Below, piece after piece: positions 1 to 47,103 of a DNA stretch of 64,000 nt. The notes below the pieces were generated by a model. It was not told the origin of the DNA. It ran no database searches and worked only from the letters and a program-made list of their open reading frames with translations. The stretch covers positions 31,401 through 95,400 of the forward strand of contig CAYPFA010000001.1 in assembly GCA_964410025.1 (NCBI GenBank), in the 5' to 3' direction. The stretch is from Candidatus Woesearchaeota archaeon (GTDB lineage: Archaea > Nanobdellota > Nanobdellia > Pacearchaeales > GW2011-AR1). How positions within the stretch are numbered: the stretch's first letter is position 1; every line of letters begins with the position of its first letter. The translations under genes were made by a program, and so were the position numbers.

Positions 1-1364
1 CTTCTTCCAAAGTAGGTAAACATTTGTGATTCGTAGGCACTTGATGAGGACGCAGCTAGCAGAGTAGAAGTTTGAGCTGCAGCACAAGAATTTGCAGAAT
101 TTGCACAAGAAATTCTTGCAACATATTGATCCAAGACCGTATCTCCAGGACCAGTTTGATCTTCCATAAGTGCAGTTATTTTTCCTACATTTTCAGGATC
201 GTATTGTAAAGAAGCCCAAGAAGTATCGGTTCCAATATCAACACCCGATAGAAATGTCTGAGAAGTTTCCCAAACTCCTGCTTGACAATTTGTTTGGCCA
301 AAACAACGGATTATATTAAAATAATCAACATTATTTAAACCATACATCAAAACAAAACCACCAGAAGAAGTTTCGGGCACTATATCAAAATTTCTAAATG
401 AAGTTCCATCCTGATATTCTCCTGCAGCAGTTATTTCCGTTACAGAACCCCAGCCCGAACCAGTCCACTCAACACAATTAAAATCTGCACCAGCATCTAC
501 AGAACAAACCATTATTCTATCGCTGTTTGGATAATTAACGGCCTTAACCCATTGAAAATCAGCAGTTTGACCGGCAGAAGCAGGGACGCTACTTTCAACA
601 CCGATAGTATTTGTAAATGTAATTGCCCTTAAGGAAGTTGCTGCTGCATCGGCCCAAACAATTAAAGCATCTCCCGAATCCTCGTAAGCAACCGCAAAAT
701 CTTCCTTAGTCGCAGTCTCCAAAGTCGTTTCCAATAAATAAGATATCGACCATGAAACCCCATTCCATTCCATTGCAATCAGATCAGAATTAGCATCAGC
801 TGCAATCATCATAATATAATTGCTAACACCATTATCTCTATCTGCAACCAAATTTATCCAATTTATCTGTCCAGTAAGATTAGTAACCACAAATCCGGAT
901 TTATAAAAAGAAGTTCCATTCCAAACCTGATATCTAACTTGACCCGCTGTTCCATTATTATAAGCAACCATAACATCCCCTGAAGCTTTTTCAACAGCGA
1001 GATCATATGCCCTATATAAATTCACACCAGAAGTAGCAGTCATGGTTGAAACAGCACTCCAATTGCTAGTCGAATTATAAAATTGAACTTTAATATCGTT
1101 GTTTGAATCAAGAGTACCTAAAATCGCCTTCTCTCTCACGGGATTATTTTTTAAAACAACCCATTGTAATGTTCCCGTTACTGCAGTCGCATTAAAGTTT
1201 GGAGAAAAAGAAGTTTCATTCCAGACCTGATATTGGGGAGTCGCTACGTACGCAGCGGTAGAATTTTGAAAAGCAACCATCCCAGACTCGGCACTAATGA
1301 AATTAATCAAGAATACCCCTAAAAGTAAAACTAGTATCCAACCCTCTTTTTTATCAATCACCAT
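1..1364 (-). CDS. secreted repeat-containing surface protein (C-terminus lies beyond window start)
   Basis: Hand translation of the minus strand from ATG 1364-1362 gives MVIDKKEGWILVLLLGVFLINFISAES... (signal-peptide-like), and the frame stays open to position 1. Recurring YQVWN[EG]TSF and W-rich segments suggest a repeat (propeller/lectin-like) protein. It is absent from the ORF track because no stop lies inside the window. Confidence 0.6.
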   Translation of the reverse strand, partial: MVIDKKEGWILVLLLGVFLINFISAESGMVAFQNSTAAYVATPQYQVWNETSFSPNFNATAVTGTLQWVVLKNNPVREKAILGTLDSNNDIKVQFYNSTSNWSAVSTMTATSGVNLYRAYDLAVEKASGDVMVAYNNGTAGQVRYQVWNGTSFYKSGFVVTNLTGQINWINLVADRDNGVSNYIMMIAADANSDLIAMEWNGVSWSISYLLETTLETATKEDFAVAYEDSGDALIVWADAAATSLRAITFTNTIGVESSVPASAGQTADFQWVKAVNYPNSDRIMVCSVDAGADFNCVEWTGSGWGSVTEITAAGEYQDGTSFRNFDIVPETSSGGFVLMYGLNNVDYFNIIRCFGQTNCQAGVWETSQTFLSGVDIGTDTSWASLQYDPENVGKITALMEDQTGPGDTVLDQYVARISCANSANSCAAAQTSTLLAASSSSAYESQMFTYFGR

Positions 1365-6285: not shown

Positions 6286-7394
6286 CAAAACCCCTTTCAC
6301 CATATGAAACTGACGCATCTCAGGTAGTTGGAAAAGCAACGAAAATTATTCAACCAGAAAATATGCAAGAATTAAAAAATGCCATAAGAATGAATCCAAA
6401 AATCTGCATCAGAGGCGGTGGAAGCGGTTTAGCTGGCGGAGCAGTTCCTCAAAATGAAGCTGTTTTAGATTTATCAAAACTTGACAGAATAGACAATTTA
6501 GACACATCCCGAAGAACAATTGAAGTTGAAGCCGGAGTTATACTGGACGATTTAAACAATTATTTAGATAAATACAACCTAGAATTCCCTCTAAATCCTT
6601 CATCTCACGCAATTTGCACAATCGGCGGAATGATTGCCACAAATGCTGTCGGATCCAGAGCAATAAAATATGGAAGAACTTCCGAATGGATAAATTGGCT
6701 AGAAATAATTAATCCAATGGGAGAACAAGAAAAAAAAGCTCAAACAGAACTTTCAGACTACACAGGCATGGAAGGAATAACAGGAGTAATCGCAAAAGCA
6801 AGCCTGAGGCTTTCCGTAAAAAAACCCAAAAGAACAGCGACACTAATTTCATCTGGATACATAAATGAAATATCTGACTACGTAAGAAATTTAAAACGAA
6901 ATCCAAATGTTTCCATGATTGAATTTTTTGACAAGAAAATTTCTGAATGGCTTGGACTAGATTTCAAATATCATTTACTTATAGAATTTGAATCAGATGA
7001 AGGAAATCTAAAAGACGAGCAATATAATCAAATGATGGAAACAAGAGATAAAATTTATCCCATACTTGCCGAAAAAGGCTACAACAGAATCGAAGATCCA
7101 AAAATACTTTTAGATAGATTTGATAAACTTTTCACATATATTGAATCCTACGATATTCCCGTTTATGGACATCTTTCCGTAGGAATATTGCATCCCTGCT
7201 TCTCCAAATCTCAAGAAAGATTAATACCTGAAATAATGAGTTTAACAAAAAAACTTTGCGGACAAATAACTGGAGAACACGGAATTGGTTTATTAAAAAA
7301 AGAATTTATCGACGTAAATGACAAAAAATTAATCCAACTAATCAAAAGTAGAACAGATCCAACAAATAAATTTAATTCTGGGAAGGTTTTATGA
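6282..7394 (+). CDS. FAD-linked oxidase (GlcD / D-lactate dehydrogenase-like)
   Basis: GGGSGLAGGAVP FAD-binding motif and C-terminal GEHGIG motif. ATGA overlap with the PHP gene. Confidence 0.7.
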   Translation: MTKPLSPYETDASQVVGKATKIIQPENMQELKNAIRMNPKICIRGGGSGLAGGAVPQNEAVLDLSKLDRIDNLDTSRRTIEVEAGVILDDLNNYLDKYNLEFPLNPSSHAICTIGGMIATNAVGSRAIKYGRTSEWINWLEIINPMGEQEKKAQTELSDYTGMEGITGVIAKASLRLSVKKPKRTATLISSGYINEISDYVRNLKRNPNVSMIEFFDKKISEWLGLDFKYHLLIEFESDEGNLKDEQYNQMMETRDKIYPILAEKGYNRIEDPKILLDRFDKLFTYIESYDIPVYGHLSVGILHPCFSKSQERLIPEIMSLTKKLCGQITGEHGIGLLKKEFIDVNDKKLIQLIKSRTDPTNKFNSGKVL

Positions 7395-35208: not shown

Positions 35209-36375
35209 TTATGGGTTAATAGAATCTATCAACATTTTCTCAGAAAGTTTTTCTTCTTTTCCAGTCTTCATATTTTTCAAAGTATATTTTTTATTCCTAA
35301 CTTCATCTTCTCCAATAATAATTACTTTCCCAATTTTTTTCGCATTTGCAAAATCCAAAGCCTTACTTGGCGCTTTATCTGTTAACAAAACAACTGCAAC
35401 ATTTTTCTCCCTTAATTTCTGCGCAATCTCTATTGCTTTCTCGTCTTGATTCATTGATAAAATTAAAAAATCTTTATTCTCATTGTCAATTTTTGAAAGC
35501 AAAAATAATGGTTCGAGTCCAAAGGAAATTCCAGCTGACTGACTTCCGTTTATCATATAGGCACCACCACCAGAAAGTGCAACACCCAAATCCTTGCTCC
35601 AAATTTCAAATACACTTCCGTTATAATAACTCAAACCCCTTGCTAGAAACGGTCTGAATTCAATTTCAACACCATAACTTTTACAAAGTTCTTTCAGTTT
35701 AACAATATCTTTATAATAAGAATATTTCGCAAAACTTTTTTCTGGAGATGTAAATATATCAACCAACTTTTCAGCTTTCAATTCCTTAAGATTTTTCTTA
35801 ACTTCTTCCTTAGATAATTTATCTAACTTATCAAGCTCTCTTATAACCTGCTCTCTTTCTCTTTCTGGAATTCGCTCAGCTTCCAAAACTTCATTAATCA
35901 ATTTTCTATTATTAAAATAAATTGTTGCTGGGATTTTCAAACCTTCAAAAACATTTTTCGCCAAAGCCATTAACTCAGCCTCTTCTTTTATGGAACTTCC
36001 AATAACATCTGCATCACACTGAATAAACTGCCTAAGTCTGCCTTTCTTTATCGGCTCATCTCTAAAAACATAACCAATCTGATATCTTTTGTATGGCAAT
36101 TTTTGATTTTTTGCAATTCTTTTTAGCTGAAATGTAAATTCAAATCTTAAAGCAAGTTTTCTTTCTCCCCTATCTTGCAATCTAAAAACATCCCTAACGG
36201 CCTCGTCTTTTTCATTGTCGCCTTTAACAAATTCTTCAGATTCTACAATCGGAGTCTCAGCCGGTTCAAAACCAAATAATTTAAATTGATTTCTAATTAT
36301 CTCCATCATATTTTCTCTCTTCTTAGCATCCTCGCCAAAAAAATCCTGAAATCCCTTAATAGTTTCTGTGTTCAT
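35209..36375 (-). CDS. histidyl-tRNA synthetase-like protein (probable HisZ regulatory subunit, or divergent HisRS)
   Basis: Class II HisRS-like motifs GFQDFF, FRDEPIKKGRLRQFIQCD and SGGGAY (Arg of the GGGRY motif replaced), plus a C-terminal anticodon-binding-like alpha/beta domain. It is the last gene of an operon that starts with a short-form hisG, which normally needs HisZ. Confidence 0.65.
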   Translation of the reverse strand: MNTETIKGFQDFFGEDAKKRENMMEIIRNQFKLFGFEPAETPIVESEEFVKGDNEKDEAVRDVFRLQDRGERKLALRFEFTFQLKRIAKNQKLPYKRYQIGYVFRDEPIKKGRLRQFIQCDADVIGSSIKEEAELMALAKNVFEGLKIPATIYFNNRKLINEVLEAERIPEREREQVIRELDKLDKLSKEEVKKNLKELKAEKLVDIFTSPEKSFAKYSYYKDIVKLKELCKSYGVEIEFRPFLARGLSYYNGSVFEIWSKDLGVALSGGGAYMINGSQSAGISFGLEPLFLLSKIDNENKDFLILSMNQDEKAIEIAQKLREKNVAVVLLTDKAPSKALDFANAKKIGKVIIIGEDEVRNKKYTLKNMKTGKEEKLSEKMLIDSINP

Positions 36376-38745: not shown

Positions 38746-39038
38746 TTTTTATCTCTCCTTGCATTTTCTTTATAAATATCTTCAAGCGTAATTTCAGCTT
38801 CGGTCATATAAACTAAAAGAAAATACATCAAATCTGCGCATTCCCAAATAAGATTCTCCTTGTCTTTTGATGTTATAACTTCTGCCGCTTCTTCTATTAA
38901 CTTTCTTTTCAAAAGTTCTTTATCTGCAACCAACTTTTTAGTGTAAGAATTTTCTTCTCCACTGGCAATTTTCGTTTTAATTTTTTCATAGAGCTCTTCT
39001 AAATTAAGTTCGTTATTCGTTTTCATTTTTACCTCCAA
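38742..39038 (-). CDS. hisE: phosphoribosyl-ATP pyrophosphatase
   Basis: NSYTKKL, KLIEEAAEV and ECADLMYFLLV motifs of the HisE/MazG-like family. Confidence 0.85.
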   Translation of the reverse strand: MEVKMKTNNELNLEELYEKIKTKIASGEENSYTKKLVADKELLKRKLIEEAAEVITSKDKENLIWECADLMYFLLVYMTEAEITLEDIYKENARRDKK

Positions 39039-39585
39039 TTATTACAATATCCGATTCGAAAATTTTATCATAGACTTTTAATCCGGCTTCTTCAGCCGAC
39101 TTTCCGGAATAAACAATATCGACGACTAAATCAACAATCTTGTTGACAAAAGCAGATTCGGTAGCACCAGAAAGATATATTTTTTCAAAAACAAAGCCGC
39201 GTTCAAATTCAAGTCTCGCCAAATATTTCTTGGCGATTTTGGAGTATTTCCGATTGATGCAAACTCTTAGTTTTTTTTCAAGCTCTTCAATTTTTTTATT
39301 TTTGTCTCCAAGTAAACAGAGAGTTGGTTTGCCATAAACGCAATCAGAATCGTTCCATGAGACAGTTTTAATTTTCTCAAATTTACTATTTCTATTTCTA
39401 ATACAAAATTCTTTCAGTAAATCCTCTCCAGTGATGCCAATGACTTTCTTGTTTTGCCTAAAAAGCTCATCAACAAATAACGGAACATCCTCTCCACGAA
39501 CCTCCAATATCTCTCCAGAATACTCCTTAGAAATTTCTTTACAAATAGCAAGTCCAGAATTTTTCGGTACGATGAATATAATCAC
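39013..39585 (-). CDS. hisG: ATP phosphoribosyltransferase, short form
   Basis: 190 aa with a GTG start. GITGEDLL and DLVVDIVYSGKSAEEAGL match the HisG catalytic region, and there is no C-terminal regulatory domain. Confidence 0.8.
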   Translation of the reverse strand: MIIFIVPKNSGLAICKEISKEYSGEILEVRGEDVPLFVDELFRQNKKVIGITGEDLLKEFCIRNRNSKFEKIKTVSWNDSDCVYGKPTLCLLGDKNKKIEELEKKLRVCINRKYSKIAKKYLARLEFERGFVFEKIYLSGATESAFVNKIVDLVVDIVYSGKSAEEAGLKVYDKIFESDIVIIGGKNENE

Positions 39586-39783
39586 AGCTTTGTTGAGCTA
39601 CCATGTTATACTCCGAGAAATAAAAAATTGCGAGTAGGGAATCGGATTTGTAGATTTATAGGCAGATGGGCTGGAAGGTGCGAGCAAAACGCTTTTGCTT
39701 TTATCTTGCACAGCAACTATTATTTCGTTTTTCGCAAATGCATTTTGTGAGTAAAGAATCGGACTGACCGATTCACATTTAAG

Positions 39784-39927
39784 GGCGGAAGGTGTGAGAC
39801 CTTTAGAGAAGGTCATCCCCACGGGAAATCGGACTTGTCCGATGAACACATTAAAGGCGGAAGGTGTGAGGCCTTTAGAGAAGGTCATCCCCACGGGAAA
39901 TCGGACTTGTCCGATGAACACATTAAA
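39784..39927 (-). repeat. two tandem 72-bp units, each a cloverleaf-like fold ending in the tRNA-His 3' terminus
   Basis: Unit (minus strand) = TTTAATGTGTTCATCGGACAAGTCCGATTTCCCGTGGGGATGACCTTCTCTAAAGG[C/T]CTCACACCTTCCGCC. Copies lie at 39927-39856 and 39855-39784 with 1 mismatch. The last 13 nt equal the T-stem 3' strand, acceptor 3' strand and C73 of the adjacent tRNA-His. A degenerate further copy CGCACCTTCCAGCC lies at 39682-39669. Confidence 0.85.
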
Positions 39928-40083
39928 GGCGGAAGGTGTGAATCGGACACACGTCTCACGAGTTCTGTCTTGTTGTCTGTCGCCAGACAGGAAGGATAGT
40001 TTTTCTACCTTCCTAGAGGCTCTTTTTTCTAAAAAGAACCTGTAGACCACAGTCGCGTATTCTACCATTGAACTACATCCGCC
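39928..40083 (-). tRNA. tRNA-His (anticodon GUG) with an 84-nt intron at 37/38
   Basis: The 5' exon is encoded G-1, GCGGATG, D arm GTTC-AATGGTA-GAAT, then CGCGA-CTGTGG. The intron spans 40046-39963. The 3' exon is C-TCGTG, AGAC, T arm GTGTG-TCCGATT-CACAC, CTTCCGC and discriminator C73 opposite G-1. Splice sites lie in 3-nt bulges (GG|T and AA|C) flanking a CTGT/ACAG helix, a relaxed bulge-helix-bulge. Confidence 0.7.
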
Positions 40084-40097
40084 ATATTTATTTCTGA

Positions 40098-40144
40098 ACG
40101 TCTCTGAGCCACAGTCACGCATTCTACCATTGAACTACCGAGCT
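40098..40144 (-). pseudogene. intron-less partial tRNA-His-like copy (about positions 1-47) immediately upstream of tRNA-His
   Basis: AGCTCGG-TA-GTTCAATGGTAGAAT-G-CGTGA-CTGTGG-CTCAGAGACGT. The D arm and anticodon loop are identical to tRNA-His, but the acceptor strand differs, there is no G-1 and no matching 3' strand. A TATA-like ATTTAAAG lies about 28 nt upstream. Confidence 0.5.
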
Positions 40145-40665
40145 TTAGCTTTTGACAACTTTCCTGTTCTTTAAATCTTCCGTATGGACAAAAGACAAGG
40201 CAGGGAAAGGAGCCATTAATTATATTTAAATCTAAATTCGAGGGTATAAAAATGTTGTTAGAATTGGAAATAAAGCAAAGGCTAGTTGAATTACAAACTG
40301 TGCCGATAACTCCATTGATTTACCATAATAATTTTAGAGCTACCACCTTTAAAAAGTTTTCTATTCCAAATCAAACCATACCTTTTTAATCTCCTTTCAC
40401 GACTATATTTTATGGACAACAAATTTTTAGCGATAAGAAACAAGAGCATGATTGCCAGGACTAAGTCTAGACAAGGCAATCAAAATATGAAAACACTCGG
40501 TATAACTAACCCAAAGTATAATGAACGTGGAGAAAGAAAAAGAGAAAGATACCAAAAAGCAAGCGAAAAAGGAAGAGATCTCTACCATAAGGCAAGAAGA
40601 CGTGGAGCAAACAATCAAAGAACAAGAAGACGTAGAAGAAGATAAATTAGAAGGATTTTTATAGA

Positions 40666-41742
40666 TTGAAAATATTTAGTTTTATGCCAATAAAATTTAG
40701 AAAATTAAAAAATCCGACAAGAGGGACAGAAATTGGATATGCGACAATTCCATTAAAAGATATTGATTCTCCGGAAATTTATAGAGATATTTCTACTGCA
40801 ATTGAGAAAGTTTATGATTCTGTAGAAAATGGAGAATACGATAGAGGAAGAAGCAATCCGATTAAGCGTGTCGCAGAAGGTTGGCATAAGCCCAATGCTT
40901 CCACATATAAAATGTCAGATGAGCAATTATTGAATCCAATGGTGAAAGAACTTAAAGAATTTGCGAAATCAGATAAAAAAGAAATGAGCCTGGAAGTACT
41001 GAGCCCTAAAGAATCGGACCCATTTTATTTTTCATTAAGAAAGACAAGGGGGCAAATATTAATAGTCCCAAGACCATTTATCCATACTATTTATAGAACA
41101 AGAAAAAACAAACTTGATACAACAGGGCAAGCAGATGTTGGTTCTTCTACAGCCCAATATAACGACGTACTTTCTATTTTAAAAGAAGGTTTTAGTCTCC
41201 CAACTGGAAAACATTGGGACACTAATGCATTACCTAAAAAATCCAAAGAACATAGATTTAATGAAAGTTATTCTGCTGGAGATAGAAAAGAGGAAGGAAA
41301 TGTAACTAGCAAGGACAGGTATTCAATAGAATTATTTCATGATGAAGGAAGGACCAATGGGAGTGAATATGCAATTATTTCAGCTTCACCCCAGAGAATA
41401 TTATCTGTTAATATACAATTAGATAAGGATGCCTCTGAGGAAGAAAAAGAAAAAAAGATGCAATTTTATGATAAAGAAATAACAGGAAGATATAAAGTTC
41501 CAGTAAGATTTTTTGATGACTCTGGGAAAAGAGCATTCCCAACACAACAATCTCTTGAACAAAAATTCTCAGTCATCGCCATCGTCGGTTTTTTATCTTC
41601 TTTATTTTTCATCGGTTCGAGTGTGACAGGAAATGCAATTGCAGATTTAACTTCAACAACTTCTAATTTTATCGGAGCAGGATTATTTTTAATCGGAATA
41701 GTTGGAGCTTTATTTTATTTTAAATCAAAAAACAAATTTTAA
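40666..41742 (+). CDS. hypothetical protein with C-terminal transmembrane anchor
   Basis: 358-aa ORF (TTG start, alternative ATG at 40684) with two C-terminal hydrophobic helices. No recognised motif. Confidence 0.5.
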   Translation: MKIFSFMPIKFRKLKNPTRGTEIGYATIPLKDIDSPEIYRDISTAIEKVYDSVENGEYDRGRSNPIKRVAEGWHKPNASTYKMSDEQLLNPMVKELKEFAKSDKKEMSLEVLSPKESDPFYFSLRKTRGQILIVPRPFIHTIYRTRKNKLDTTGQADVGSSTAQYNDVLSILKEGFSLPTGKHWDTNALPKKSKEHRFNESYSAGDRKEEGNVTSKDRYSIELFHDEGRTNGSEYAIISASPQRILSVNIQLDKDASEEEKEKKMQFYDKEITGRYKVPVRFFDDSGKRAFPTQQSLEQKFSVIAIVGFLSSLFFIGSSVTGNAIADLTSTTSNFIGAGLFLIGIVGALFYFKSKNKF

Positions 41743-45942: not shown

Positions 45943-47103
45943 ATGCCAACATCTTGTTTCAAAATTCTTCACAAAGATAAAAAAACCGACGCACGAGTTG
46001 GCGAAATTTCAACAAAAAAAGGAAAAATTAAAACTCCTTTTTTTATGCCCGTTGCAACAAAAACTTCTGTTAAACATATTAATTCTCGAGACCTAGAAGA
46101 AATGAATTGCCCGGCAGTAATTAGCAACACTTTTGTTTTACATTTACGACCTGGAGAAAAACTAATCAAAAAATTCGGAGGAATTGGAAAATTTATGAAC
46201 TTCAAAGGAATTAACGTAACAGATTCTGGTGGTTTCCAAATGTATTCTCCGTCGCTATATCATTCCTCCGATGAAAAGGGAGTTACTTTCAAAAATCCCT
46301 ATGATGGCAAAAAAGTTTTCATCACACCAGAAAAAGATATGCAAATTCAACTAGACTTGAACGCAGAAATTGCAATGTGTTTAGATACAATGCCTCTGAT
46401 TGAACATCACAAAGAACAAATTCAGCTCGCAGTTGAAAGAACAACAGCCTGGGCAAAAAGATGTAGAGAAACTCACAATAAACTTCAATCAAAAATTCCA
46501 CAAAATAAAAGACAACTTCTTTGGGGAATAACTCAAGGTGGAATTCACGCAGACCTGAGAGAAAAATCAGCTAGAGAATTAAAAGAAATTGATTTTGACG
46601 GTTATTCTGTTGGCGGATTAGCCCTAGGCGAAACTATCGAACAAGAAATGGAAATGATTGACATTCATAAAAAAGTTATTGGAGAAAGCAAGCCTTGTTA
46701 TTTAATGGGCGCAGGAAATCCAGTTGAAGTTTTAGAAGCAATTTCCAAAGGAGTTGATATGTTCGATTCAAGATTCCCGACGCAAAACGCGAGAAGAGGA
46801 ACAATTTTTACATCAAAAGGAAAACTAAGAATTTTTAGAAAAAAACACATAATGGAAAACAAACCATTAGATGAAAATTGCGATTGTTTCGTCTGTAAAA
46901 CCTACACTAGAGGCTACATAAGATACCAACTTTTTCAAGAAGAAGCAGTTGGAATGCGTTTAGCAACTTTCCACAATTTATATTATCTAACAAAACTAAT
47001 GGAACAAGCAAGAGCTGCAATAAAACAAGGAAAATTTTTAAAATTCAAAAACAAAATCAAAAAGATCTACGAAAAAGAAGACGCTGGTGTTGAACAGAGA
47101 TAA
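45943..47103 (+). CDS. tgt: tRNA-guanine transglycosylase (archaeosine/queuine TGT family, catalytic domain only)
   Basis: FMPVAT, TDSGGFQ, GGLALGE and the zinc site CDCFVCKTYTRGYIRY. At 386 aa it lacks the C-terminal PUA-containing domains. Confidence 0.85.
   Translation: MPTSCFKILHKDKKTDARVGEISTKKGKIKTPFFMPVATKTSVKHINSRDLEEMNCPAVISNTFVLHLRPGEKLIKKFGGIGKFMNFKGINVTDSGGFQMYSPSLYHSSDEKGVTFKNPYDGKKVFITPEKDMQIQLDLNAEIAMCLDTMPLIEHHKEQIQLAVERTTAWAKRCRETHNKLQSKIPQNKRQLLWGITQGGIHADLREKSARELKEIDFDGYSVGGLALGETIEQEMEMIDIHKKVIGESKPCYLMGAGNPVEVLEAISKGVDMFDSRFPTQNARRGTIFTSKGKLRIFRKKHIMENKPLDENCDCFVCKTYTRGYIRYQLFQEEAVGMRLATFHNLYYLTKLMEQARAAIKQGKFLKFKNKIKKIYEKEDAGVEQR

Follow-up and report, generated by a model that had tools for sequence, protein, structure and literature searches.

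A conserved tRNA-His gene at the head of DPANN histidine operons and a candidate histidine-codon +1 frameshift site at the start of hisG

Programmed +1 frameshifting is known from prfB (encoding release factor 2, RF2), from antizyme and from the yeast Ty1 element, where a slow-filling ribosomal A site acts as a sensor; the codon in that site is a stop codon in prfB and a rare arginine codon in Ty1. In the bacterial his attenuator, the supply of His-tRNA-His is read by a run of seven histidine codons in a leader peptide (hisL), and the output is transcription termination. The locus considered here bears a likeness to both. It is the start of hisG, which encodes a short-form ATP phosphoribosyltransferase, in a histidine operon that follows a tRNA-His gene on the minus strand of an archaeal contig (GenBank assembly GCA_964410025.1, contig CAYPFA010000001.1). 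The stretch analysed, referred to as the window, comprises 64,000 nucleotides (nt) of this contig (positions 31,401 to 95,400) with a GC content of ~33%, and all coordinates given are positions within it. Comparison with relatives suggests that translation of hisG starts out of frame and that the full-length protein would be reached by a +1 shift at a histidine codon.

Other described systems resemble further parts of the locus. In the E. coli thrU-tyrU-glyT-thrT-tufB unit, and where tRNAs punctuate organelle transcripts, an upstream tRNA shares its promoter with a protein gene. In the E. coli thrS operator and in T-boxes a tRNA, a synthetase family and the expression of a cognate gene are linked. 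HisZ, a paralogue of the catalytic domain of histidyl-tRNA synthetase (HisRS), was reportedly described by Sissler et al. in 1999 as a HisRS-like regulatory subunit of the short-form ATP phosphoribosyltransferase.

For comparison with the window, HisG homologues were aligned, and 62 genome loci and 80 metagenome loci were fetched and collapsed to 116 clusters at 95% identity; linkage was counted over the 104 clusters with sufficient upstream sequence. Loci of relatives are labelled L001 and so on, L001 being a Joint Genome Institute (JGI) contig of the same species, which was also assembled in four other samples. At E ≤ 1e-5 there were 277 hisG homologues, of which the named ones belong to DPANN archaea (Pacearchaeota, Woesearchaeota and Nanoarchaeota), and a scan of GTDB species genomes gave the 62 archaeal hisG loci, almost all of them labelled DPANN. 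The window organism is a DPANN archaeon and not a bacterium. A bacterial origin within the Candidate Phyla Radiation, raised by the presence of DnaK, DnaJ and GrpE and of a 386-residue tRNA-guanine transglycosylase (TGT), was ruled out on the ground that DPANN archaea account for the named HisG homologues and for 60 GTDB loci. With an archaeal host, sigma-70 promoter boxes and the T-box and thrS analogies are not directly transferable.

Two reading frames at the start of hisG

As annotated, hisG (39013..39585, minus strand) encodes 190 amino acids (aa) from a GTG codon and matches PF01634 only. Ahead of this GTG, on the same strand, the Shine-Dalgarno (SD) sequence GGAG (39614-39611) precedes an ATG at 39604, from which an open reading frame (ORF) in the frame of the ATG, the 0 frame, runs to a TAA at 39541-39539 (MVAQQSCDYIHRTEKFWTCYL, then stop). 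This ATG is proposed as the true start of hisG translation. The proposed +1 frameshift site is AUU CAU C (39571..39577, minus strand), which is read as Ile-His in the 0 frame and as (A)UUC AUC in the hisG frame. The hisG start region is identical across four independent samples.

The same layout recurs among relatives. Their spacers carry a strong GGAGG and an ATG ahead of the codon that aligns with HisG residue 1, and the offset from the ATG to residue 1 is always 3k+1 nt (7, 13, 16, 19, 22, 25, 28 or 31 nt), so that the ATG frame is out of register with the body of hisG. Two frames with an NTT-CAY in the ATG frame are found in 90 of the 116 hisG clusters, and the distance from the NTT-CAY to the conserved Pro-Lys/Asn codons downstream is exactly 10 or 13 nt. 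At these 90 loci the P-site codon is ATT (70 loci), CTT (11), GTT (7) or TTT (2), and the histidine codon is CAT (83) or CAC (7). The phenylalanine codon of the hisG frame is TTC in all 90, compared with 27% TTC among the phenylalanine codons in the remainder of these genes. At 78 of 85 loci the 0-frame ATG follows an SD-like sequence at a distance of 4-16 nt, whereas the nearest hisG-frame start does so at only two of 68. In 22 of the 90 loci the hisG frame offers neither ATG nor GTG nor TTG between the upstream stop codon and the site, and yet their hisG bodies are intact. A stop codon of the hisG frame adjoins the site in L064 (TAG TTC) and L106, while in L014 a 75-nt insertion leaves the ATG frame open up to the site and the hisG frame closed.

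The 0-frame ORFs stop 3-29 codons past the histidine codon (71 in one case) and are unconserved beyond it. Downstream of the site the synonymous fraction is 0.40 in the hisG frame, as against 0.09 in the 0 frame. The 90 hisG clusters thus show the two-frame structure and the conservation by which programmed +1 sites of the prfB/Ty1 type are recognised. In one further arrangement, that of L042 (~1100-1220), hisS precedes hisG and its stop codon overlaps the out-of-frame hisG ATG as ATGA, an overlap typical of coupling; the frameshift-type start is here predicted to be translationally coupled to the gene for the HisRS-like protein.

An ordinary in-frame ATG is present in 19 clusters, several of which lack exactly one nucleotide at the site. 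The in-frame gene of L006 reads TGC GAT TAT ATT ATT GTA CCA AAG (CDYIIVPK) where the window has TGT GAT TAT ATT C ATC GTA CCG AAA. Likewise, the DYFIVPK of in-frame L023 is identical to L007 after +1 correction, and the AKDCIIVV of in-frame L045 to L050 after +1 correction. In total, six in-frame genes (L006, L023, L034, L045, L047 and L057) match +1-corrected sequences, and these cover both length classes. In-frame genes hold the Asp-Cys/Tyr-Ile residues by way of synonymous changes (GAC TGC ATC; TAC ATA; TGC/TGT), which argues that the residues are selected as protein. The +1 junction peptide predicted for the window is MVAQQSCDYIIVPK.

In the proposed mechanism, ribosomes would initiate at the SD-led ATG at 39604, whose frame differs from that of the hisG body by one nucleotide, and ten codons on would hold AUU in the P site and the histidine codon CAU in the A site. 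With His-tRNA-His plentiful, CAU would be decoded and translation would stop 10 codons later, producing a 21-residue peptide and no HisG. With His-tRNA-His scarce, the ribosome would pause and the P-site tRNA could re-pair from AUU to UUC (+1), producing full-length HisG (...SCDYI-IVPK...). Re-pairing from NUU to UUC, as reasoned from the codons, would retain two of the three pairs and, for GNN anticodons, exchange a G:U wobble for a G:C pair. After a shift at NUU-CAY the next codon decoded would be AUU, AUC or ACU. The regulatory logic fits a frameshift of this kind because starvation would raise HisG. Quadruplet decoding of CAUU by tRNA-His was also considered and is less likely, since in-frame orthologues have Ile, Val or Thr at that position and never His; the 7-nt anticodon loop of the mature tRNA also disfavours it.

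A number of observations weigh against a frameshift. Upstream of the site, counts of synonymous and non-synonymous pairs do not separate the two frames (0.08 vs 0.07). Where a hisG-frame start would be expected, ~80 of the 90 loci have NTG (GTG in 50, TTG in 15); the hisG-frame residues that follow it are conservatively hydrophobic, and an NTG start would yield a HisG whose N-terminus has the canonical length. The T of this codon is missing from in-frame relatives, which ties it to the frameshift-type arrangement and means that the NTG could be a real start codon. L010 (~2450-2480) and L044 (~6990-7020) are without the 0-frame ATG, and a mini-ORF of the form SD-ATG-NNN-TGA instead overlaps the NTG (as TTGA or CTGA), which suggests reinitiation at the NTG in these two loci. 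L022, L051 and L124 are in frame yet retain V-F-I, so an alternative N-terminus is tolerated. The sole candidate stimulator is a conserved (G)UGAU 3 nt upstream of the P-site codon; we take it to be complementary to the 3' end of 16S rRNA (GGAGGUGAUC), so that a stimulator like that of prfB is conceivable, but the motif is equally accounted for as NTG followed by AU. Finally, the evidence consists of comparative sequence analysis of metagenome assemblies, from which we infer the frameshift, and the dependence on histidine is a further step again.

Many of these observations are what would be expected if the SD-led ORF were a leader peptide (an upstream ORF, or uORF) and no frameshift took place. 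HisG would then be made from a GTG or TTG in its own frame, and the progress or stalling of ribosomes at the single histidine codon of the uORF would control initiation or reinitiation at the overlapped hisG start. The prevalence of NTG at the aligned start and the hydrophobic residues behind it, the canonical length of the GTG-start product, the two-codon ORFs of L010 and L044 with a TGA overlapping the NTG, and the V-F-I retained by in-frame L022 all favour such a model, which would also account for the conserved SD-ATG, the conserved histidine codon and the histidine-free operon described below. It is difficult to reconcile with the 22 of 90 loci whose hisG frame lacks ATG, GTG and TTG alike (~9 are without any NTG), with the hisG frames closed near the site above intact hisG bodies (L064, L106 and L014), or with the near-absence of SD-like sequences before the NTG codons. 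The uORF stop lies 20-95 nt downstream of the NTG, a poor geometry for reinitiation. Furthermore, stalling on CAU would place the ribosomal P site 9 nt past the NTG, which the ribosome would then cover, so that starvation would lower HisG, the wrong sign for this model. Nor would purifying selection on D-C/Y-I in the in-frame orthologues be expected if these residues were never part of HisG. The uORF model is therefore considered unlikely, though NTG initiation may occur in some lineages or beside the shift.

The tRNA-His gene and its linkage to the his operon

The tRNA-His(GUG) gene of the window lies on the minus strand from an encoded G-1 at 40083 to C73 at 39928. It consists of exon 1 (40083-40047), an intron of 84 nt at position 37/38 (40046-39963) and exon 2 (39962-39928). 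In its match to Rfam RF00005, which scores 43.8 bits (gathering score 29), the anticodon loop contains an insertion. The intron, which was absent from an earlier sequence-only reading of the window, is the reason that ARAGORN with default settings misses the gene; ARAGORN -i misses it too, and a lowered threshold calls tRNA-His (gtg) i(38,84). The exons are almost identical to the intron-less tRNA-His of L009, including an unusual T loop, UCCGAUU. Position 55 of tRNAs is near-universally U (pseudouridine), and the T loop of the window gene has a C there; because this C55 loop recurs in several related lineages, it is not a feature of a pseudogene. The loop UCCGAUU (39928-39962 in the window) is also found in L009, L011, L029, L032, L041, L057, L094, L102 and L103.

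The intron appears to be of the archaeal type, and introns are present at the identical position in 25 of the 77 tRNA-His genes called by ARAGORN in relatives. A bulge-helix-bulge drawn by hand pairs CUGU (32-35) with ACAG (39968-39965), leaves 3-nt bulges (cut GG/U and AA/C) and gives a 7-nt anticodon loop, but its outer helix is only 2 bp long. A constrained minimum free energy fold favours GUCU/AGAC over this CUGU/ACAG pairing, and an unconstrained fold of the pre-tRNA gives no cloverleaf.

A second, non-canonical type of intron, in the T loop (59/60, 26-44 nt), is found in the tRNA-His genes of L020, L038, L040, L056, L138, L153 and L158. These genes lie 100-300 nt upstream of hisG and often have the 37/38 intron as well. 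They are missed by ARAGORN and by Rfam at the gathering threshold. Among 18 loci that had seemed to be without a tRNA, Rfam at the gathering threshold reported nothing upstream of hisG, and inspection of the sequences revealed a tRNA-His with a T-loop intron in seven. Negative results of these tools for tRNA-His in DPANN loci are unreliable.

The linkage of tRNA-His to hisG is widespread in relatives. In 77 of the 104 clusters ARAGORN calls a same-strand tRNA-His(GUG) whose end is no more than 400 nt from hisG; the seven loci with T-loop introns bring this to ~84, and five further loci have a tRNA-His farther upstream (three of these five with the order tRNA-His-hisS-hisG), for a total of ~90 of 104. 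The tRNA-His gene thus stands at the head of the operon in ~85% of DPANN short-hisG loci, down to a HisG identity of ~44%. The gene for the HisRS-like protein is also a conserved member, lying in the same operon at most loci with enough flanking sequence. Three layouts are seen: tRNA-His-hisG-hisE-hisS; a full operon, represented by L030 (tRNA-His-hisG-hisC/HAD-hisB-hisH-hisF-hisA/I/E-hisD-hisS); and tRNA-His-hisS-hisG. The sequence-only reading had placed on the minus strand, in order, a tRNA-His-like fragment, tRNA-His, 72-bp units, a TATAAAT box, a T-run, hisG and, at the end of the operon, a HisRS paralogue, and it had proposed the conservation of the tRNA-His/hisG linkage as a check. Every one of these elements was found in place, and with the linkage conserved in ~84-90 of 104 loci their juxtaposition is not accidental. 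In the Iainarchaeum-like loci L053, L061 and L160 there is no tRNA-His upstream of hisG; these share the motif ATGAATCCCACTTTTTTCCCAC ~90-120 nt upstream, which may mark a regulatory site or the beginning of a small conserved ORF.

The distance from the 3' end of the tRNA to the first ATG is short, with a median of 28 nt, a value of ≤45 nt at 61 of 80 loci and a minimum of 0-13 nt. In archaeal promoters the TATA box lies ~26 nt before the start site. Since the spacers are so short and the mRNAs carry a Shine-Dalgarno sequence, a separate hisG promoter would fall inside the GC-rich 3' end of the tRNA. Runs of at least five T are present in only 20 of the 80 spacers, so strong termination between tRNA and hisG is not a conserved feature. 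The short spacer therefore implies read-through from the tRNA into hisG, that is, co-transcription of tRNA-His with the his genes.

Upstream of tRNA-His, TATA-like hexamers peak at -40..-31 (85 loci), and in the close relatives L007, L009, L086 and L090 a motif, cTTTTTATAccc, lies ~30-40 nt upstream of the tRNA. The window has an element of the same type, AACATTTTTATACCC (40242..40256, minus strand), resembling a TATA box with a transcription factor B recognition element (BRE) and probably acting as the promoter of the tRNA-His/his transcription unit. It is ~160 nt from the tRNA because a fragment of a tRNA gene intervenes. This fragment (40109..40143, minus strand; repeat D4) is the decayed 5' half of a tRNA-His gene, with 30 nt at 93% identity to 40047-40076. 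It covers the D arm and the anticodon arm to position 37, where the similarity ends, and its acceptor strand does not match. It resembles the tRNA-His of L009 even more than it resembles the window's own gene, and no 3' partner was found for it.

A single promoter upstream of tRNA-His would, to judge from the spacing, drive a transcript carrying both the tRNA and the his mRNA, from which the tRNA would be freed by RNase P, RNase Z and the splicing endonuclease. The window itself is an extreme outlier in this regard, with its tRNA-His 322 nt from the ATG owing to the satellites described below. This distance, the T6 run and the TATAAAT make co-transcription least certain in the very species under study, which is a further point against the scheme. 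Nevertheless, the whole chain of co-transcription followed by a +1 frameshift at a histidine codon is the account that we favour, with some reservation. We are more confident that histidine is sensed at the level of translation through the conserved SD-led ORF, however that ORF acts.

Satellites derived from the 3' end of tRNA-His

Between tRNA-His and hisG the window contains tandem satellites of 72 bp (39757..39927, minus strand; repeat families D1 and D2), for which Tandem Repeats Finder reports a period of 72, 2.6 copies and 93% matches over 39757-39941. A 13-mer, CACACCTTCCGCC, which combines the 3' sides of the T stem and the acceptor stem with C73, occurs three times at a spacing of 72 nt. 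At up to two mismatches it has six matches in the window against 0.25 expected, with exact copies here only, and the 72-bp units are not repeated anywhere else in the window. Each unit can be parsed into a trailer (TTTAAT), an interrupted copy of the T arm with a 30-nt insert at T-loop position 59/60, and CACAC-CTTCCGCC. The insert lies at the exact site of the T-loop introns of relatives.

Closer to hisG lies an older, degenerate remnant of a tRNA 3' end with its trailer (CTCGCACCTTCCAGCCC ... TCCGATTCCCTACTCGCAA; 39628..39684, minus strand; repeats D3 and D5), in which a fourth, degenerate copy of CACACCTTCCGCC is found at 39684-39668. The TATAAAT (39660-39654, minus strand) is inside this remnant and has no A-rich, BRE-like sequence upstream. 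The T-run TTTTTTATTT (T6-A-T3; 39618..39627, minus strand), just ahead of the ribosome-binding site, is possibly a partial archaeal terminator. The hisG GTG (39585) follows ~85 nt beyond the last tRNA remnant. An ORF of 174 aa (39598-40122, minus strand) spans the tRNA gene and the satellites, and JGI annotates a 120-aa gene there (L001 8076-8438); this ORF is most likely a spurious call caused by the repeats.

No species other than this one has the satellites: in relatives whose HisG is 60-68% identical, the spacers measure 20-60 nt. The number of satellites also varies within the species, with four copies of CACACCTTCCGCC in the JGI contig L001 and three in the window, and three Logan assemblies break within the array. 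Duplicated tRNA-His 3' ends are nevertheless found in the spacers of at least seven other loci (L034, L058, L059, L088, L097, L114 and L096), where they enclose only 35-115 nt, or ~700 nt in L096, and additional tRNA-His copies are found nearby in L018, L023, L035 and L052. Because duplicated 3' ends recur in this way, the 3' end of tRNA-His appears to be a recurrent hot spot of recombination or integration. A genomic island would be marked by a distal direct repeat of the tRNA 3' end, and the window contains none; nor was an integrase recognised, the adjoining 358-aa ORF (40666-41742) having no Pfam or NCBIfam match and one weak PHROG match.

A hot spot of this kind could by itself explain the locus. 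The his genes would have come to lie beside tRNA-His by chance, the repeats would be att-type scars, and the linkage would persist by inertia in streamlined genomes, without regulatory meaning; the at least seven independent duplications, the extra tRNA-His copies and the clear instability of the window satellites are all in keeping with such a passive history. Yet the linkage spans several DPANN phyla and HisG identities down to ~44%, and the tRNA remains at the head whether hisG or hisS comes first, despite the rearrangement of gene order. The spacing is tight (median 28 nt), and in the window no distal repeat of the tRNA end flanks the operon. A passive history also leaves the out-of-frame ATG, the histidine codon and the histidine-free proteins unexplained, and as an account of the linkage it seems to us distinctly unlikely. 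It is the satellites, the older remnant and the 5' fragment that we regard as unstable by-products, lineage-specific duplications of tRNA-His pieces that lengthen the leader in this species and have no conserved role.

The sequence-only reading had suggested that the tRNA-His-derived structures might titrate or recruit the HisRS-like protein, as in thrS, or sense the charging of tRNA-His by pairing with uncharged tRNA in the manner of a T-box. The juxtaposition of tRNA-His, fragments and HisRS-like gene is real and the linkage conserved, and the HisRS-like protein retains an anticodon-binding domain, so that some binding of tRNA is conceivable. The satellites themselves, however, are absent from all other loci and vary in copy number within the species. 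Each unit holds a single strand, the 3' one, of the acceptor stem and of the T stem; having no 5' strand and no anticodon arm, the units form no acceptor helix and present no G-1:C73 pair. The spacer fold has z = -1.96 against shuffles, with two of 100 shuffles folding equally well, and since it is not significantly better than shuffles it lends no support to a tRNA-like fold of the satellites. A search of 39300-40500 against Rfam at E ≤ 10 gave no match to T-box (RF00230) or His_leader, and the organism is an archaeon. Regulation by tRNA mimicry is thus very improbable, and the proposed titration or recruitment of the HisRS-like protein is not supported. Sensing of tRNA-His charging probably does take place, by way of the conserved histidine codon at the proposed +1 site rather than through mimicry.

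Operon proteins and comparison with known systems

The operon continues on the minus strand from hisG through hisE (39038-38742), a gene for an Asp/Glu-type racemase (38745-38032), hisD (38035-36803) and a gene for a GNAT acetyltransferase (36806-36372), all four identified with Pfam and NCBIfam, to the gene for the HisRS-like protein (35209..36375). All neighbouring genes overlap, and those downstream of hisG would probably be translated by coupling. HisG scores 65 bits on TIGR00070, below the cut-off of 75.75, and has no C-terminal regulatory domain. The genes hisC, hisB, hisH, hisF, hisA and hisI are absent from the window. Many relatives keep only hisG-hisE-hisS, and the operon of the window is likewise a reduced form, in which hisG, hisE and hisD are kept; the racemase and the GNAT acetyltransferase, both without histidine, are gains. 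Homologues elsewhere are often fused (for example P0004, P0010, P0082 and P0105), as HisG-HisE (~285-300 aa), HisI-HisG (333 aa) or HisG-HisD, and genes of the his pathway appear to fuse freely in DPANN archaea.

The proteins of the operon are almost devoid of histidine. In the window there are four histidines in 1467 aa, all of them in HisD, compared with a window background of 1.53%; HisE, the racemase, the acetyltransferase and the HisRS-like protein have none. HisG proteins of the frameshift type have three histidines in 89 genes (0.02 per 100 aa, with none in 86 of the 89) against 1.01 in neighbouring ORFs, and almost all operon-linked HisRS-like proteins are without histidine. No histidine codon precedes the site in the 0-frame leader at any of 85 loci, and in the window the CAU of the shift site is the only histidine codon that a ribosome meets before hisD. 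Enzymes free of histidine could be built during histidine starvation.

Outside the operon, the only other histidine-free ORF of at least 150 aa is one of 454 aa (3-1364, minus strand), which has no Pfam match. The TGT mentioned above (386 aa; 45943-47103, plus strand) matches PF01702 with 424 bits, is of bacterial-like length and adjoins GrpE-DnaK-DnaJ. An archaeosine TGT is expected to carry extra C-terminal domains, and the TGT of the window is without them.

The HisRS paralogue that the sequence-only reading had placed at the end of the operon is present as a protein of 388 aa (PF13393 and PF03129). It scores 267.9 bits against hisS TIGR00442 (cut-off 286.75) and 113.1 bits against hisZ TIGR00443 (cut-off 271.65), and among its best matches in PDB, HisRS (6nhi, 152 bits) ranks far above HisZ (3od1, 49 bits). 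Motif 2 and HisA are intact, HisB is deleted (GG-GAYM compared with GGGRYDxxVG), and the arginine of motif 3 is replaced by proline (GLEP compared with GLER); the anticodon-binding domain PF03129 is at residues 306-385. Because HisB is deleted and the motif-3 arginine replaced, the protein is unlikely to be an active synthetase. Degenerate HisB and motif 3 sequences are common to the closest relatives, while more distant operon-linked copies retain GGGRYD and GLER and may be true synthetases. Since HisG is of the short form, the HisRS-like protein is probably a HisZ-type partner of it. The anticodon-binding domain has been kept and catalytic motifs have been lost, so that the protein may represent an intermediate between HisRS and HisZ.

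A more elaborate picture, which we put forward tentatively and regard as rather doubtful, joins these features into a self-contained device for histidine homeostasis in DPANN archaea: co-transcription with the tRNA, a switch at a hungry codon, histidine-free proteins, and a dead HisRS paralogue that would couple HisG to histidine or to uncharged tRNA-His, much as the HisRS-like domain of GCN2 does.

Should the frameshift prove true, it would constitute a third translational way of sensing an amino acid, beside attenuation and T-boxes. It would also be the first case of conserved +1 recoding in an archaeal cellular gene, and no natural amino-acid pathway would have been known before to be gated by a frameshift. 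It would show how a pathway can be regulated in ultra-small archaea that possess few transcription factors, here by hard-wiring it to a constitutively transcribed tRNA gene and moving control to the ribosome. There would also be a consequence for annotation. Current gene callers place the start of these genes at an internal GTG, as they do in the window; since at least 22 lineages have no such start, mis-annotation of HisG is probable throughout DPANN genomes. In a 2021 review of recoding, the one archaeal cellular gene listed as frameshifted is fucA1 (-1) (PMC8211752), and HisZ has been described as bacterial only (PMC9437257). The literature searched, the coverage of which was incomplete, held no report of a hisG frameshift, of frameshifting at histidine codons, of HisZ in DPANN archaea or of linkage between tRNA-His and a his operon.

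With prfB, antizyme and Ty1 the hisG arrangement shares a short SD-led 0-frame ORF that ends soon past the site, an NUU-type P-site codon (CUU in prfB and Ty1; AUU, CUU or GUU here), and a conserved site alongside scattered orthologues that are simply in frame. Re-pairing of this codon in the +1 frame, a slow-filling A site as the sensor and an autoregulatory logic would be further features in common. It differs from prfB and Ty1 in that the A-site codon is a sense codon for the pathway's own amino acid. Other differences from these systems are its archaeal setting and the position of the proposed shift, only ~10 codons into the gene. In place of the stimulator of prfB, it has no proven stimulator, just the conserved (G)UGAU.

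With the his attenuator of bacteria it shares biosynthetic proteins that are poor in the cognate amino acid and, on the proposed reading, the use of histidine codons in a short SD-led leader ORF at the head of the operon to read the supply of His-tRNA-His. Here, however, there is one histidine codon (two in a few relatives, such as L008) in place of seven, and the leader ORF extends into the coding sequence of hisG. A terminator/antiterminator pair is lacking, Rfam His_leader gives no match, and the proposed output is a change of reading frame rather than termination of transcription.

The unit headed by thrU in E. coli and the tRNA-punctuated transcripts of organelles resemble the locus in the likely sharing of a promoter, and here too the 5' end of the mRNA would arise by 3' processing of the tRNA. 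In the DPANN arrangement, unlike those units, the tRNA, the pathway and the synthetase paralogue concern one amino acid, and the arrangement, with co-transcription deduced from its spacing, is conserved across an archaeal superphylum. Like HisZ, the HisRS-like protein is encoded beside a short HisG that has no regulatory domain, and its aminoacylation motifs are degenerate; unlike HisZ, it is archaeal, keeps its anticodon-binding domain and scores higher on the hisS model (268 bits) than on that of hisZ (113 bits). In contrast to the thrS operator, there is no mimic of an anticodon arm at the ribosome-binding site, and the satellites end at least ~85 nt upstream of the GTG and are absent in relatives. 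T-boxes are bacterial, and neither a specifier nor a T-box sequence is present here. The hisG arrangement would work most like prfB, antizyme and Ty1 and would serve the purpose of the his attenuator, while being a member of neither group, and it is not a T-box or an operator of the thrS type.

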